Source: Eledone cirrhosa (lineage: Eukaryota). From it: a DNA stretch of 64,000 nucleotides. Where the stretch lies: assembly GCA_964016885.1 (NCBI GenBank), contig OZ024742.1, positions 253,766,001 to 253,830,000 on the forward strand, written 5' to 3'. The notes under the pieces are model-generated. The model was not told the DNA's origin and did not search any database. It was given only the letters and a program-made list of their open reading frames with translations. Made by a program: the position numbers and the translations under genes. Shown here in pieces: positions 17,532-60,540 of this stretch; the first letter of the stretch is position 1; each line of letters starts with the position of its first letter.

Positions 17532-18232
17532 TATAAGTATGTACACGTACACACATATATGCATACCGACGTACAGTAGTATGTATACATATATATACAT
17601 ACATGCACACATATATATATGCACGTATGGATTCACCGAATATTTATTATAATGCTCGGTGTGTTTGTAAACAAACATCCCGTATTAAGCCGTAGTGTCT
17701 AGCAACCACCGTTGCTCGTTTGTTCAACACTGACAAAGGAACGCTGTACTAGTTTCAAGCTTGTTAGCTATCGTCAGCCGTACTAAGAGTGGGAAATGAA
17801 ATATCGTTTCATTTTTTCCGTTTATCGTTTTCGGTGCACCCGGCCGATTAACCCACTCGATATGCAAATTGGGCTACTCAGCCGTTAATATGCATAAGGT
17901 AAGTATATACGTTCAACAATCTGGCAGGAAGGTATACGTTGCTGACGATAGCTAACAAGCTTGAAACTAGTACAGCGTTCCTTTGTCAGTGTTGAACAAA
18001 CGAGCAACGGTGGTTGCTAGACACTACGGCTTAATACGGGATGTTTGTTTACAAACACACCGAGCATTATAATAAATATTCGGTGAATCCATACGTGCAT
18101 ATATATATGTGTGCATGTATGTATATATATGTATACATACTACTGTACGTCGGTATGCATATATGTACATACTTATATTTAAGTAACAGCCGTACTAAGA
18201 GTGGGAAATGAAATATCGTTTCATTTTTTCCG
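17532..18232 (+). mobile_element. HHR element family B (412-nt unit, 46-bp terminal redundancy, 5' inverted partial copy)
   Basis: 17775-17820 equals 18187-18232; 17532-17778 is the reverse complement of ~17941-18178; further partial copy at 61264-61510. Confidence 0.85.
17936..17978 (+). ncRNA. Minimal type I hammerhead ribozyme (family B)
   Basis: ACGTTG-CTGACGA-TAGCT(AACA)AGCTT-GAAA-CTAG-TA-CAGCGT; inverted copy lacking most of the 5' stem I strand at 17741-17778. Confidence 0.8.
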
Positions 18233-18254
18233 ATTATTATTATTATTATATATA

Positions 18255-18429
18255 TAATTGTTTCTACTTTAGGCACAAGGCCAGCAATATCCAGTGCATT
18301 ACTGGTACTTTATTTTATCGACCCCGTAAGGCAAAGTTAACCTCGGCGGGATTTGAACTCAGATCGTAAAGGGACGTAACTATGCTGGAAAGCATGGCGT
18401 CCGACCCTCTACCGATATTGCCAATCCAC
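18255..18429 (-). mobile_element. SINE family S1
   Basis: Reverse complement of the 641-820 family. Confidence 0.85.
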
Positions 18430-19510
18430 GTTTTGCCTTATCTTAAAAATCGTATATCGTTTTTATATAGTAAACTCAGTATCCTAAGTTCGGATTTAGA
18501 ATGGTCATTGTATAACTAGAAATTTCTGAATTTGCGGTTTGAAATATCTTTTGGCTTTCAAAGCACTTAGATAACTTAAATGATCACATAAGTTGTACAG
18601 GTTATCTTCCTTTGTTTACATTCTTCGTAAATAATTTTCGTTCTATCCAAATGGATTAATAATCTATATTTAACATGATTTATGCAGTTTAATAATATAC
18701 GAAAAATCCTTAAAGGGAAACTACATATATTAAGATGTAATTACAGAAGTAAAATCGAAATAATAATACTTTTAAGAGTAAATATAACTACTTATTAATC
18801 CTGTAAGTAAATGACAACCAATGAATTGAACTGTTTTTATAATTCAGATAATAATTCTTAACATTATATAAAATGCATATACTGATGGTGATATGCGCAT
18901 ACGTTGTAGTAAATATCCTTATACATATTTAATACGTGCTTTATAGATAAAAATGTTTTTGAATTTTGTAACAAAATAATAAATATAAGTAATTAAACTA
19001 TACTTCTGATTATTATAGAAAATATATTTATATTGTTTAATTTTGATATAATATATTAGTATAATTAGCTTAAACAAAAGATATTTTTAAAAATGTCATG
19101 GTATTTAATTTGTCGCTTCTATTTGACTTAATATTTGAAAACAATGGTCACGCATCATGTCTCTTTCTTCCTTCTTTCTTTCTTTCCTTTTTGCAGTTAT
19201 GTCTTTCTTCTTCTCTTCTCTCTCTCTCTCTCTCTCTCTTTCTTTCTTTCTTTCTTTCTTTCTTCCCTAACACCTATATTTATGCATTTAAATAGTTATG
19301 TATGCATGTGTTTATTTACTTCTTGCATTTTCTCATACTCACCCCCTCCTTATACTTATATCTCGCTCCACATCCTCTTCTTCATTTATTTAAGTTTATT
19401 ATGTTATTATTTGTGGTATATAAATGTTGAGATTTGTTGTAATAAATCACTTCCAATACTGGAATTGAACCATCAAGACAGTTCAGGTATGTCATACATC
19501 AATTCATGTA

Positions 19511-19572
19511 TTTTATCTGACGAGGAGGTACTGAAAAAACAGCACAGTACCTTCGAAATATATATAATAAAA
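19511..19572 (+). ncRNA. Type I hammerhead ribozyme
   Basis: TTTTAT-CTGACGA-GGAGGTACTG(loop)CAGTACCTTC-GAAA-TATATA-TA-ATAAAA; 10-bp stem II and 6-bp stem I. Confidence 0.8.
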
Positions 19573-57504: not shown

Positions 57505-57690
57505 GAGAACAATGATGACGATGATGATGACAACAACGATGATGACGATGACGATGATGATGACAACAATGCTGATGACAATGATGATGATGATGATGAT
57601 GATGATGATAGTGATAATGATGGTGATAATGATGGTGATAATGATGATAATGAGGATTATGATGAGGATGATGATTGTGATAATGATATA
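57505..57690. repeat. Imperfect (GAT)n microsatellite
   Basis: Direct reading. Confidence 0.9.
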
Positions 57691-58259
57691 GGCATGGGGT
57701 AATTAGAATCGTAACTAATCAACTAACATAATTTCAGATATAAAAGGAGTTAAAACACTGACTCAGCATTCTTTCAATAATGTACATATGGCATTGAATG
57801 TTATAGTCATTAGATTCCCAATGATAAATTAAGCATTCACACACACGCACACATACCCCCCCCCCCCACACACACACACATATTAAGAAAGAAGGAGAGA
57901 GATGGTTTACAACTTCAGTTTATGTACATTTTAAAGGCATTAAAATGTCATTATGTAATTGTCATTTAATGAGCTATTATCAAACAAGTGCTGAAAATGA
58001 AAACATTGTTTTCTTTTTGTTGTTGGTTTTTGATATGCTAGGCATATATATATCTGCCAGATAGTCCTATACGAGCGAGACATGGTCACCTGAACAATCT
58101 TGCCTCCCGTCTAACCCATGCTAGCATGAAAGATAGACGTTAAACGATGATGATGATGATGATGATGATGATGATGATGATGATGATGATGATGATGATG
58201 ATGATGATGATGATGATGATGATGATGATGATGATGATGATATATATATATCATACCTA

Positions 58260-60060
58260 TAACAGAGCATGCTAAAGCCATTACAGCGTCAAGAACTATA
58301 GTATAGAGAACCACACTAAGAAACTTGACCACACTGTTAATTACACGAGTGGCGACCAAGACAACCGACAGTATGGTAAGTGCTACACGATTGGTAACGC
58401 CACCCGCTGCAGCCTATTGGAATTATTCCCTAACTATAGGATCAGCAACGGTAGTGGCCTATTACCAACACCCACCAACCCACGTCTAGCCACACATAAA
58501 AATTACGGAGGGAAGGCGCCCCTACCTGAACATAAAGTAATGGGGACGTATAACCAGCTAGAGCAAAGGAACAACCGTAAGTACTGTCAACTAGGAAGCA
58601 CAACCTGTAGCAACCCCACTGTAAAGCGGAAATGACACCGTAATATCCTATGGTTCCACCCCCACCCCTACTCTTGGAGTGTGGCCTCCGACATACCGAG
58701 GATATTCTTCGAAGCCTTGGAGAGGAATTTCCCACCTAATCATAAATACAGAAAAATACTTAACAGGAAGAATATCAAAATATCCTTATCTACCACCCCC
58801 AATCTAGCTGACATCATAGGAGCAACTAATCACAGTAAGATCAATGAAACACTACACCTTAGCACAGATACATCTAGACCTGACAACAACACTAATAACC
58901 TTAACATCCTCCTAACAGCACCAAATAGGGTTGGTGGCAGCCCCGGCAGACGAAACCCACGTAACCAGGGCGTGATTGGAGAATATACCGGTGACCCACA
59001 CGCGTCACCCACCGGCAACTGAACGGGTTGCAGCGTGCGGAGTGATAATGCACGCCTCGAGAGATAACAGTACCAATGACCGAGTTAGAGACATAGATAA
59101 CAACATGGGTAGCAATAGTAATAGCTTTACTTTAGGAACTAAGAGCGACCGTGACAGAAAATGCAACTGTCGTGACAGGGTAGGCTGCCCTCTCAGGGGA
59201 AACTGCCTGACTGATAAAGGTTATTTATAGGTCCACCGTAACTAGCCATAGCGGAGTTAAACAATATATAGGGGCCACCTCTGGCCAGTTTAAAACGAGA
59301 TTTAGAACACATCTCCACCCTTTCAGGAACAAAAAACTACGGCACGCCACATCGCTTGCGAACTACGTGACCACATTACAAGACGCCAACATAAGCTTCT
59401 CCACACACTGGGATATTGTCGGTAGGGTTGCACCCTACAACTTCAGGGGGAAATGCTAGCTCTGTCTCATGGAGTTGTACTACATCATAAGAACACCCCA
59501 CGAGCTCATAAACAGCCGAGCAGAATCAGTAATAAATTGTAAACACCGGGTGCAGGCGTCGTATTTTGCCTGGGAAGCGACTGCGACATGAAAACTACGA
59601 ACTGGGTCCCCCTGCCCTAACCATAACACCCCGGTGGGCAGGCGGTATGAACAAACATCTGTGAACCAAATGTACATCGCAGACCATGATCAAACAAGCA
59701 TTAGTGAAGCAACATCCACTAAATAATAAATGTACACCCCAGACACGATCTGTACTGGCACTAGTGAAACAACACACATAATATAAAGATGCTAAACACC
59801 AGCATATGAACAGGTATAAACATCTAAATGGGAATTGATTTTTTTGAACACCGGCCAGAGTTACTCCCCCTGAACAACACATGCACAGAGGAGAAGAATG
59901 AACTATGATGTTAATTTAACCGTGAAATCCCTCCTGGGTCCTATATTGATCATTGTTTTGTTTTCCATGCCCTTGATAAGCCCATTCCGGGCGAAACGTA
60001 CGTAGGCGCACTGTTATATAAACATGTTCTAACAGTTTTAAACTCCTTGTATTCATTTCC
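58260..60060 (+). mobile_element. Naiad-type PLE remnant lacking RT: linker, GIY-YIG and pLTR with HHR
   Basis: NILWFHP, FPPNHKYRKILNRKNIKISLSTTPNL, CNCRDRVGCPLRGNCL, VIYRSTV..YIGATSGQFKTRF..H, KC*LCLME, NSRAES..CKHR. Confidence 0.9.
59968..60008 (+). ncRNA. Minimal type I HHR (U3-A8 variant) in the PLE pLTR
   Basis: TGCCC-TTGATAA-GCCC(ATTCC)GGGC-GAAA-CGTACG-TA-GGCG. Confidence 0.8.
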
Positions 60061-60179
60061 TTTATATATATATATATATATATATATATATATATATATA
60101 TATATATATATATATAATCATGTGTACACAAATATTCATCTCTCTCTCTCTCTCTCTCTCTCTATATATATATATATAT

Positions 60180-60540
60180 GGATATAAATATAATGTATTT
60201 TGCAATACACTTTATGCTTAATTAAAAGCATTTTGAAGACCGTAAGCTATTGTTTTAAAGTAGTGACAAATTCACTCACTTCGATCTCAGCAAACAGGAG
60301 GAGATAAGCCGACATGACATGTTTCGCTTTTGTTGAAGCTTATCAAGGCCAACTACCCCGCCCGTCTGCTGAGATCAATGATGTTATATTCTTATAGAAA
60401 TCTAGTAAATAATCAGGAGCTGATTATGCAGAGCGGTTGTTGGTCAGGCAGAAATTAAAAATTAGAATTGTAGCTCTGAAATAGCAATATATATATGGAT
60501 GTAAATATAATGTATTTTGCAATACACTTTATGCTTAATT
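60180..60540 (-). mobile_element. HHR element family D (317-nt unit, 44-bp terminal redundancy)
   Basis: 60180-60223 matches 60497-60540; a single HHR inside. Confidence 0.8.
60307..60350 (-). ncRNA. Type I HHR (U3-A8 variant, family D)
   Basis: GGCC-TTGATAA-GCTT(CAACAA)AAGC-GAAA-CATGTCATG-TC-GGCT. Confidence 0.8.

Follow-up and report, generated by a model that had tools for sequence, protein, structure and literature searches.

Four families of small hammerhead ribozyme repeats in (TA)n tracts of the Eledone cirrhosa genome and their likely insertion by a Penelope-like element

The DNA analysed here (the window) is a 64,000-nt stretch of the Eledone cirrhosa genome (contig OZ024742.1, positions 253,766,001 to 253,830,000 of the forward strand). 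It holds copies of four repeat families, A to D, whose non-coding units of 317 to 704 nt lack LTRs, have a GC content of 33–39% and are overlain by no ORF of at least 120 aa. The arms that make up these copies mostly end at one of two positions of the unit, called sites 1 and 2. A preliminary description had given each family one type I hammerhead and a unit followed by a short terminal redundancy, and the four hammerheads and periods were confirmed. Copy 1 of family A is a single arm of 1.07 units (2577..3325, + strand; unit, 704 nt) that ends at site 1, is flanked by (TA)n on either side and carries a hammerhead core at 2947 (+) in which the base of stem I contains a mismatch; the 704-nt period holds over 2577/2586-3325, and the repeat copies are identical at 46 of 48 positions. 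Copy 2 (8761..9338, +) is an old one of 0.86 unit with 72% identity and a hammerhead at 8973. Copy 3 consists of two arms arranged head-to-head, an inverted arm of 0.68 unit (41597..42075, −; site 1 end; hammerhead at 41977) and a forward arm of 0.98 unit (42076..42752, +; hammerhead at 42252) that ends at site 2, ca. 130 nt beyond site 1. The preliminary description had also overlooked a further family A copy in the window.

Family B is represented by an inverted arm of 0.59 unit (17532..17778, −; site 1 end) and a forward arm of 1.12 units (17775..18232, +) whose site 2 end lies ca. 60 nt past site 1. The two overlap by 4 nt at the joint, 226 nt of the inverted arm match the forward arm with 100% identity, and the copy was inserted into a TA-rich tract at the 3' end of a Penelope-like element (PLE) that is broken. 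The forward arm carries a hammerhead at 17942-17972 (+) and an octamer at 17862-17869; its period is 412 nt with an identical first 46 nt, while the usual unit of the family is 422 nt, the window copy having suffered deletions. An older partial copy of 0.55 unit with 88% identity lies at 61264..61506 (+). Family C has an inverted arm of 0.34 unit (43171..43314, −; site 2 end) and a forward arm of 1.15 units (43318..43805, +; site 1 end) with a hammerhead at 43632-43666, octamers at 43486 and 43540, a period of 425 nt and redundancy copies identical at 59 of 65 positions. Family D forms an arm of 1.17 units (60180..60540, −; site 1 end) with a period of 317 nt, redundancy copies identical at 53 of 56 positions and a hammerhead at 60346-60311 (−). 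An inverted micro-arm of 14 nt (60537..60550, +) matches the site 2 end of the unit (positions 72-85) and is joined via a 4-nt palindrome; it is so short that a chance match is possible. The single architecture of monomer plus redundancy that had been assigned to all four families thus omitted the inverted arms of B, C and D, and it does not describe copies 2 and 3 of family A or the second copy of B. The accompanying statement that the families share no similarity was nearly right, the exception being an 11-nt word, common to B and C, that includes the octamer ATGCAAAT. Octamer words lie 5' of the ribozyme in B and C, and A and D have no octamer.

The predicted hammerheads of all four families are of type I with a short stem III, which is palindromic in B and D, and the core of family D is the U3-A8 variant. 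A strict hammerhead scan returned 9 matches in the window, whereas 30 shuffles gave 0.1 on average; one of the nine, at 3579, looks spurious. When relaxed, hand-checked matches were included, the list reached 14 motifs, among them a decayed one at 17474 and one at 17777 without a stem I arm, so the earlier figure of about 15 in 64 kb was fair. Rfam recognised family D only (HH9, 31 bits, under the gathering score of 52), and its remaining matches in the window were microsatellite noise. Folding of single hammerheads from the four families and the PLE gave z values of −0.01 to −2.0, a measure that is uninformative for motifs this minimal. As regards the very large circRNA load that the preliminary description thought possible, exact cores are numerous genome-wide, with 315 (A), 2858 (B), 354 (C) and 1093 (D) occurrences, but most A and C loci have one hammerhead per strand and could not excise a monomer alone. 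Arms spanning two cut sites were found in 4 of 81 cases for A and 6 of 47 for C; among the first 100 matches listed for each family, tandem cores on the same strand numbered two pairs for A and none for C. At least two predicted hammerheads in tandem do occur in arrays of B and D, though in none of the window copies.

Three PLE fragments lie in the window. The 3' half of a broken PLE, with a start that is not a mapped boundary, occupies 58636..60062 (+), has its own U3-A8 hammerhead at 59973 and ends in (TA)n; its protein is 69% identical to that of an intact genomic copy, L206. A second broken PLE extends from the RT end to the endonuclease (15970..17531, +; start likewise not a mapped boundary) and resembles L206 by eye; it has a decayed hammerhead at ca. 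17474, and its 3' end resumes at ca. 18430, after family B and a 180-bp repeat. The third is the 3' stub of a young Hydra-clade PLE (54731..54897, +) with a hammerhead at 54807, ending at its own site 1 in (TA)n. L206 is an intact ORF of 928 aa (<3 kb) with near-identical copies in the genome. Its translation contains RWK, DKT, a CxCx5C linker, CxxC, CxH and, at its C terminus, GIY-YIG, and the element carries a hammerhead and sits in a (TA)n target. Since the first five of these motifs are diagnostic of Hydra elements (PMC8557442, section 11), L206 is assigned to the Hydra clade by the motifs read from its translation; an earlier designation of the helper as Neptune-like was dropped against the same diagnostics. 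A first genome search with the L206 protein region gave 35,059 candidates. No Pfam family matched the window PLE fragments or L206, and a homologue search returned 170 mostly unnamed proteins, including one from Argonauta hians whose name was uninformative. L206-type copies end +92/93 or ca. +253-265 from the hammerhead, in (TA)n, and are arranged head-to-head; the tail of the local PLE is about 160 nt long.

The insertion ends of the four families were mapped in sets of arms that include the window copies (A, 81; B, 35; C, 47; D, 67) and were chosen differently per family, and in an unbiased family D sample of 40 consecutive loci (74 arms). The sampled copies of A and C are ca. 92% and ca. 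87% identical to the window copy, and the B and D sets are near-identical. Two fixed 3' ends were used by 73/81 (A), 33/35 (B), 39/47 (C) and 63/67 (D) arms, and by 67 of the 74 arms in the unbiased set. The two sites are spaced ca. 130 nt (A), ca. 60 nt (B), 30-45 nt (C) and 36-41 nt (D) apart, those of D being at about unit positions 44 and 80, and (TA)4 was present at 64/73, 30/33, 33/39 and 59/63 of the fixed ends, respectively, against a background of 5.6%. Head-to-head pairs had one end of each kind in 16/25 (A), 8/9 (B), 8/13 (C) and 24/29 (D) cases, and one short and one long end in 27 of 32 pairs of the unbiased set. Like ends occurred in just 3 of 108 head-to-head pairs, the others besides the mixed pairs having an unclassed end. 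The joints overlap by 1–9 nt. The pairing of short and long ends is the known Penelope-like "tail", and the whole PLE insertion footprint, namely an inverted 5'-truncated arm, a one-sided tail and a microsatellite target, was found in these families.

The preliminary description had proposed one mechanism for all families, reverse transcription round a circle with a short overshoot of mostly 44-46 nt. The remainders in the four window copies do measure 44–63 nt, a monomer plus 40–65 nt was seen at 7 of 40 unbiased D loci, and 9 of 74 D 5' ends fell within 23 nt of unit position 1, where ca. 5.4 were expected, a non-significant excess. Of the arms one unit or more in length, however, only 6/32 (A), 2/29 (B), 3/30 (C) and 6/54 (D), and 8/43 in the unbiased D sample, had a remainder in the 40–65 nt range, and remainders spanned 7–493 (A), 25–421 (B), 26–367 (C) and 4–313 nt (D). 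In the 40 consecutive D loci, arms measured 0.16–6.55 units with overshoots of 7–313 nt, and the 74 5' ends were uniform round the unit (KS p = 0.99). The longest arms reached 1.70 (A), 1.86 (C), 9 (B) and 13 (D) units. Random redundancy lengths, the outcome against which the claim had been set, are thus what measurement gave. One turn of a circle with a characteristic overshoot common to all families is refuted as a general rule and scarcely credible as an explanation. The overhang of 44-46 nt is only where these particular window copies stopped, and a "terminal redundancy" is the part of a unit left over in an arm that halted just past one turn; the constant feature of the families is the pair of fixed 3' ends, not the overshoot. 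The short longest arms of A and C, which are older families, next to those of the near-identical B and D sets could also mean that monomer-plus-remainder copies of A and C are arrays collapsed by recombination after insertion. This seems rather improbable, as loci of older D subfamilies still hold 4 to 19 or more units, fewer turns are expected of the A unit, which is twice as long, and the samples were chosen differently per family. Such collapse would supplement, not replace, insertion of retrozymes by a PLE.

We examined what kind of template the arms were copied from. The predicted cut sites are at unit positions 435 (A), 198 (B), 349 (C) and 230 (D). Arms pass through the ribozyme cut site without an indel within 5 nt in 247 instances (D, 157; B, 90). 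Arms whose 5' end lies no more than 5 nt from the cut were about as frequent as a uniform distribution predicts (A, 3/81; B, 1/35; C, 0/47; D, 2/67); the pile-up of 5' ends there that cut linear monomers with template jumps would give was thus rejected. At D loci with at least 5 units, 45 substitutions were confined to a single unit and 8 were partly shared, whereas gradual growth expects ca. 23 single-unit ones among the 53. Because of this star-like variation among units, the long D arrays look as if they were born at full length in most cases. Moreover, the D variants 133A and 317G each mark one locus at which 4 of 4 units, counted over both inverted arms, carry the variant; in exact genome-wide searches, the only other carriers belonged to older subfamilies, and no homogeneous source array for either variant was found in the assembly. 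Of the two other variants that were examined genome-wide as candidates, 174G proved not to be private, since it marks a five-locus sublineage in which all 9 covering units carry it, and 146G, fixed in one arm of a locus with internal duplication patterns, is weak evidence.

Other loci point beyond a single monomer circle. The two arms of one D locus (L157) and of one B locus (L012) carry the same rare variant in units of different rank, blocks and period-3 patterns occur in D (L152, L155, L156) and B (L179, L180), and repeated deletion joints mark a B array of 37 kb. These mixed-unit loci, which one monomer circle cannot yield, mean that multimeric templates or later DNA-level expansion also act. 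They fit the possibility that a PLE inserts uncut linear multimers, with arrays kept long by unequal DNA exchange and the hammerhead incidental to transposition, as does the finding that an anole PLE in vitro used mainly uncut RNA and did not need hammerhead cleavage for insertion (PMC11167929); seamless passage of the cut site is equally expected of such a template. Nevertheless, we regard this account as unlikely in view of the star-like variation and the two variants fixed in both arms with no homogeneous source array; in addition, purely linear copying with random truncation would be predicted to shorten arrays each generation. In Xenopus, 8 of 9 dimers did not cleave (bioRxiv 10.64898/2026.07.22.740005). 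The support for a circular or otherwise re-read template is real, though short of decisive. Among contigs of four unlabelled public runs, family D was present at very high depth in one run, and two contigs of low depth were circularly permuted, as an array or a circle would be alike, so that they were given no weight; an uninformative short query with the D 3'-end DNA returned no match, and no RNA run was listed for D, which has no bearing on expression.

As for the enzyme, the four families share their insertion footprint with the intact genomic PLE, and on this ground only, the enzyme that mobilised all four is likely to be a PLE RT/endonuclease, most likely from the Hydra clade. A preference for (TA)n is also known from Naiad elements of octopuses (PMC8557442 supplement). 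No extended or terminal match was found between A–D units and 31 loci of one PLE group, a comparison outside which the 20 loci of a second PLE family lay, and a search for a recognition word common to the units and PLE ends gave matches of 9–11 nt at most. Long matches between A–D units and PLE loci were neighbouring insertions. One might regard the four families as merely truncated ends (pLTR stubs) of autonomous PLEs, and the stub at 54731-54897 does have a similar minimal hammerhead. This is very improbable: all four units close head-to-tail with no ORF between them, B and D form arrays, 32 A arms and 30 C arms exceed one unit, and the PLE ends at the 31 loci do not match. The independence of the families from PLE termini, as first described, was thus upheld. 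Of the mechanism proposed there, the PLE enzyme stands as the likely mobiliser, the circular template has real but indecisive support and the short overshoot falls.

Taken together, we consider it likely, judging from genome sequence, that A–D are ORF-less non-LTR retrozymes in (TA)n with fixed 3' and random 5' ends, inserted in trans by a PLE. Loci with at least two tandem units would give transcripts that the hammerhead cleaves and that are closed by ligation into circles of one unit. From the footprint and published in vitro work on another PLE, the endonuclease would then cleave a TA tract on both strands, and RT would be primed by each target end at one of two fixed internal RNA sites; in vitro, a PLE cleaves and extends the two strands, with starts at two internal positions of the RNA that delimit the tail (PMC11167929). 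Arms cross the ribozyme site without stop or scar and end at random after <0.2 to 13 units. They stand head-to-head with an overlap of 1–9 nt, or a single arm abuts the target, and would have been joined in this way. On one reading, the insertions are fossil traces of retrotransposition from a rolling circle: a Hydra-clade PLE enzyme would bind one ligated ribozyme circle, prime at two fixed sites from either end of a cut TA microsatellite and go round that molecule for up to 13 turns, serving several unrelated viroid-like RNAs with no visible sequence tag in common. We judge the odds of this reading to be about even.

The finding as first stated is modest, since the class and the PLE-helper idea were already published and the constant overshoot was wrong; A–D are new members of a known animal repeat class. 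What appears to be new is genomic support for re-reading of one RNA unit, which comes from the scar-free cut-site passage, the long arrays that look as if born at full length and the two private mutations fixed in both arms, with linear multimers and later DNA expansion also leaving traces. If the rolling-circle reading is true, the insertions would support directly, from the genome, the circle-template model of retrozymes and PLEs; in the literature searched, this model was found as a proposal, and no test of it of this kind was found. With their hundreds of near-identical insertions, the young families B and D allow the steps of PLE transposition to be read and counted, namely the two start sites, head-to-head joining and circular versus linear template, and the 317-nt D RNA with the intact 928-aa candidate helper is material for a direct in vitro test.

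The plant-type LTR retrozyme, with type III hammerheads in two LTRs, PBS/PPT and a 4-bp target duplication, was rejected, since the motifs here are of type I, occur once per unit and come with no fixed terminal repeat. Like newt satellite 2, the families are tandem repeats with a hammerhead, and the octamer words upstream of the ribozyme in B and C, lacking in A and D, may recall the internal snRNA-type promoter of that satellite (cited in PMC2220036). Non-autonomous Chlamys PLEs, for example MRC1, are likewise multicopy, head-to-tail and PLE-mobilised (PMC8557442), as A–D appear to be; those elements, of an algal host and a different clade, resemble their helpers at the 3' end as described there, whereas A–D do not. 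Endonuclease-bearing PLE insertions comprise a partial tandem, an inverted 5'-truncated copy and a 30–40 bp tail (PMC8557442, PMC3846280). A–D resemble them in their head-to-head arms, one-arm tail, truncation at the 5' end, joints with short overlaps or palindromes and AT-rich targets (PMC8557442, PMC3846280, PMC11167929), and differ in having no protein, tails of ca. 35 to 130 nt and up to 13 turns of a small unit. L206, the candidate helper and distinct from A–D, agrees with the published description of the Hydra clade, to which Hydra-1_Obim of Octopus bimaculoides belongs, in its motifs, ORF of <3 kb, hammerhead and (TA)n target (PMC8557442). For metazoan non-LTR retrozymes, PLE helpers and circle templates have been proposed (PMC7229834; bioRxiv 10.64898/2026.07.22.740005). 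Insertion-end maps, a two-site tail, inverted arms, a (TA)n target and a template test from variant patterns were not found in the portions of these two sources at hand. Xenopus retrozymes are homologous to PLE pLTRs according to the 2026 preprint, a homology that A–D lack with the PLE loci examined, and that preprint demonstrated expression and circles, whereas A–D are known as genomic copies. A–D nevertheless agree with metazoan non-LTR retrozymes in having units of a few hundred nt without an ORF, a GC content of <45% and one type I hammerhead per unit (PMC7229834), and in ranging from monomers to multimers (PMC7229834; bioRxiv 10.64898/2026.07.22.740005).

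All four families of small ORF-less hammerhead repeats (A, B, C and D, with units of 704, usually 422, 425 and 317 nt, respectively) were present in the window with their direct repeats and hammerheads. Family A, for which the preliminary description gave no coordinates, was recognised at 2586-3325 by its 704-nt period. A strict hammerhead motif scan of the window yielded nine matches versus 0.1 in shuffled sequence, and the hand-checked list comprised 14 motifs. Further hammerheads, which have a long stem II and a ATATATAT stem III and belong to other families, were located at 1931 (-), 19517 (+) and 62094 (+). 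The parts of the layout previously proposed (monomer, redundancy and hammerhead) do exist, but the layout was incomplete since it omitted the inverted arms at B (17532-17778), C (43171-43314) and D (14 nt, 60537-60550), an arm being one strand-continuous copy of unit sequence. A third A copy at 41597-42752 consists of two head-to-head arms, and the window's remaining copies of A and B all fall short of one unit.

The window (G000:C3:253,766,001-253,830,000) lies within a 3.0-Gb animal genome and is rich in TA microsatellites. Two broken Penelope-like elements (PLEs) lie in it, along with LINE fragments that include an RT and an ORF resembling a DDE transposase. An RT frame of 597 aa that contains a PHD-like finger occupies 39128-40921 (-), and a 308-aa DDE/Tc1-like transposase frame occupies 52561-53487 (-). 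A 180-bp repeat occurs in at least nine copies (629-830, 16406-16595, 18250-18429, 28470-28650, 30268-30442, 33932-34122, 34295-34472, 53695-53815 and 54443-54587), one of which splits the PLE at 16.4 kb and another of which directly follows B. Copies of a tRNA-like SINE were found at 13082-13148, 14589-14805 and 45032-45252; at 13082 and 14741 the Rfam tRNA matches exceeded the gathering score. Two MITE-like or fold-back structures consist of inverted repeats around a short interior, of ca. 175 bp (60542-60714 and 60978-61156, the former adjoining D) and ca. 160 bp (47390-47548 and 47819-47977).

Arms were placed on the units at 51 (A), 25 (B), 30 (C) and 36 (D) loci. As best matches to the window copies, these loci are biased towards young copies that span one unit or more; 30 of the A matches were drawn by a short 3' query. 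Two duplicate loci, a merged 46-kb B array and arms below 84% identity were excluded, except that all C arms were retained. Each family has two fixed 3' ends (sites 1 and 2) adjoining (TA)n, which accounted for 73 of 81 A, 33 of 35 B, 39 of 47 C and 63 of 67 D arms, and (TA)4 was found at 186 of the 208 fixed 3' ends versus a background of 5.6%. The 5' ends were variable in all four families, and the remainder past whole units measured 40-65 nt in 6/32 (A), 2/29 (B), 3/30 (C) and 6/54 (D) arms. A less biased D sample comprised the 40 loci that head the contig C1 listing of exact D core matches, with one duplicate pair retained. Its 74 arms spanned 0.16-6.55 units and left remainders of 7-313 nt, with 40-65 nt in 8 of 43 and the type of a monomer plus 40-65 nt at 7 of the 40 loci. 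The D 5' ends were spread uniformly round the unit (KS p = 0.99). Because the remainders vary and the 5' ends are uniform, the agreement at 44-46 nt is a coincidence of selection rather than a mechanism, and the claim of an overshoot shared by A-D is refuted.

In head-to-head pairs, one arm ended at site 1 and the other at site 2 in 16/25 (A), 8/9 (B), 8/13 (C) and 24/29 (D) cases, as well as in 27 of 32 pairs of the C1 sample, and like ends were seen in only 3 of 108 pairs. Most arm joints overlapped by 1-9 nt, and the tails measured ca. 130 (A), ca. 60 (B), 30-45 (C) and 36-41 nt (D). An inverted 5'-truncated copy with a one-sided tail is described as the PLE footprint in the accessible portions of PMC8557442 and PMC3846280; the available text of PMC11167929 explains the tail as the stretch between two internal RT start sites and reports that the PLE cuts and extends both target strands. 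The head-to-head arms and one-sided tail of A-D correspond to this footprint. A protein query from the broken PLE at 58636 gave 35,059 first-look candidates in the genome. An intact 928-aa PLE ORF (L206), a candidate helper, bears RWK, DKT, CxCx5C, CxxC and CxH, listed as marks of the Hydra clade in section 11 of PMC8557442, whose supplement, in the part available, gives a (TA)n preference for Hydra-1_Obim and two octopus Naiads. Local Hydra-clade copies end ca. 93 or 253-265 nt past their own hammerhead, in (TA)n and often head-to-head. The A-D units did not match the ends of these copies, and the proposed mobilisation by a PLE RT is therefore supported by the footprint but not by unit sequence. 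In the young Hydra-clade PLE (L206-L221), the tail of ca. 160 nt far exceeds the usually quoted 30-40 nt, and a low-complexity insert separates the RT and endonuclease. An 11-nt word at 103-113 of the D unit recurs, possibly by chance, in the PLE tail of one subfamily (L219).

Arms crossed the predicted cut site in 157 passages (D) and 90 passages (B), all free of indels within 5 nt, and arm 5' ends did not pile up there. Scarless crossing without pile-up rules out a main route by template jumps from one cut linear monomer to the next, and the crossings are compatible with circles and uncut multimers alike. At loci of at least five units, 45 of 53 (D) and 78 of 106 (B) substitutions were confined to single units, while gradual growth would predict ca. 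23 and ca. 46, respectively. This excess suggests that long arms were mostly born long, though fast early DNA expansion would give the same pattern. Rare variants were fixed across all covering units at 6 of 36 D loci and 9 of 25 B loci; their source array could be absent from the assembly. Four D variants were searched genome-wide. 133A had five matches and 317G eight, in each case four within one locus over both arms, and their other carriers belonged to older subfamilies; 146G was confined to one arm, and 174G marked a five-locus sublineage. At some loci the same variant occupied unequal unit ranks in one arm and the other, or formed blocks and period-3 patterns, and large arrays had higher-order structure. 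These ranks, blocks and patterns speak against a monomer circle as the sole route. Circle-templated reverse transcription, as put forward in the preliminary description, is partly supported: scarless crossings and the private variants in both arms (133A and 317G) favour it, but mixed-unit loci and period-3 patterns do not. In the in vitro work on an anole PLE, as far as PMC11167929 is available, insertion did not need hammerhead cleavage. On balance, a circle or re-read template is about as likely as not, or somewhat likelier, to be a main route, with multimers and DNA-level expansion contributing.

Exact hammerhead cores numbered at least 315 (A), 2858 (B), 354 (C) and 1093 (D) in the genome. 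The D cores were divided by strand into 720 and 373, an imbalance that may be due to large arrays. A D satellite (L255, G000:C2:207.73 Mb) has at least 19 units in a higher-order pattern of about three units and fills all 6 kb fetched. The B satellite of ca. 37 kb (L171-L175, G000:C12:20.397-20.435 Mb) contains recurring internal deletion joints, which show secondary expansion at the DNA level. An 11-nt word including the octamer ATGCAAAT is common to B and C (window 17860-17882, 43484-43506 and 43540) and not present in the A or D units. It lies ca. 110-180 nt upstream of the cut sites, is well conserved between copies and is possibly an internal promoter.

Neither cephalopod retrozymes nor a precedent for inferring the template from array variants was found in the literature searched, whose coverage mostly excludes subscription journals. 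The consulted portion of PMC4209133 proposes that PLEs copy circles beyond one unit and describes a U3-A8 core. According to the accessible part of bioRxiv 10.64898/2026.07.22.740005, retrozymes are argued to be non-autonomous PLEs. In PMC7229834, as far as available, non-LTR retrozymes are ORF-less type I hammerhead repeats, shown for coral, mussel and axolotl to yield circular RNA, and PLEs and circle-templated tandem cDNA are proposed for them. A-D are likewise ORF-less with a type I hammerhead; they are real elements belonging to this known class, the non-LTR retrozymes.
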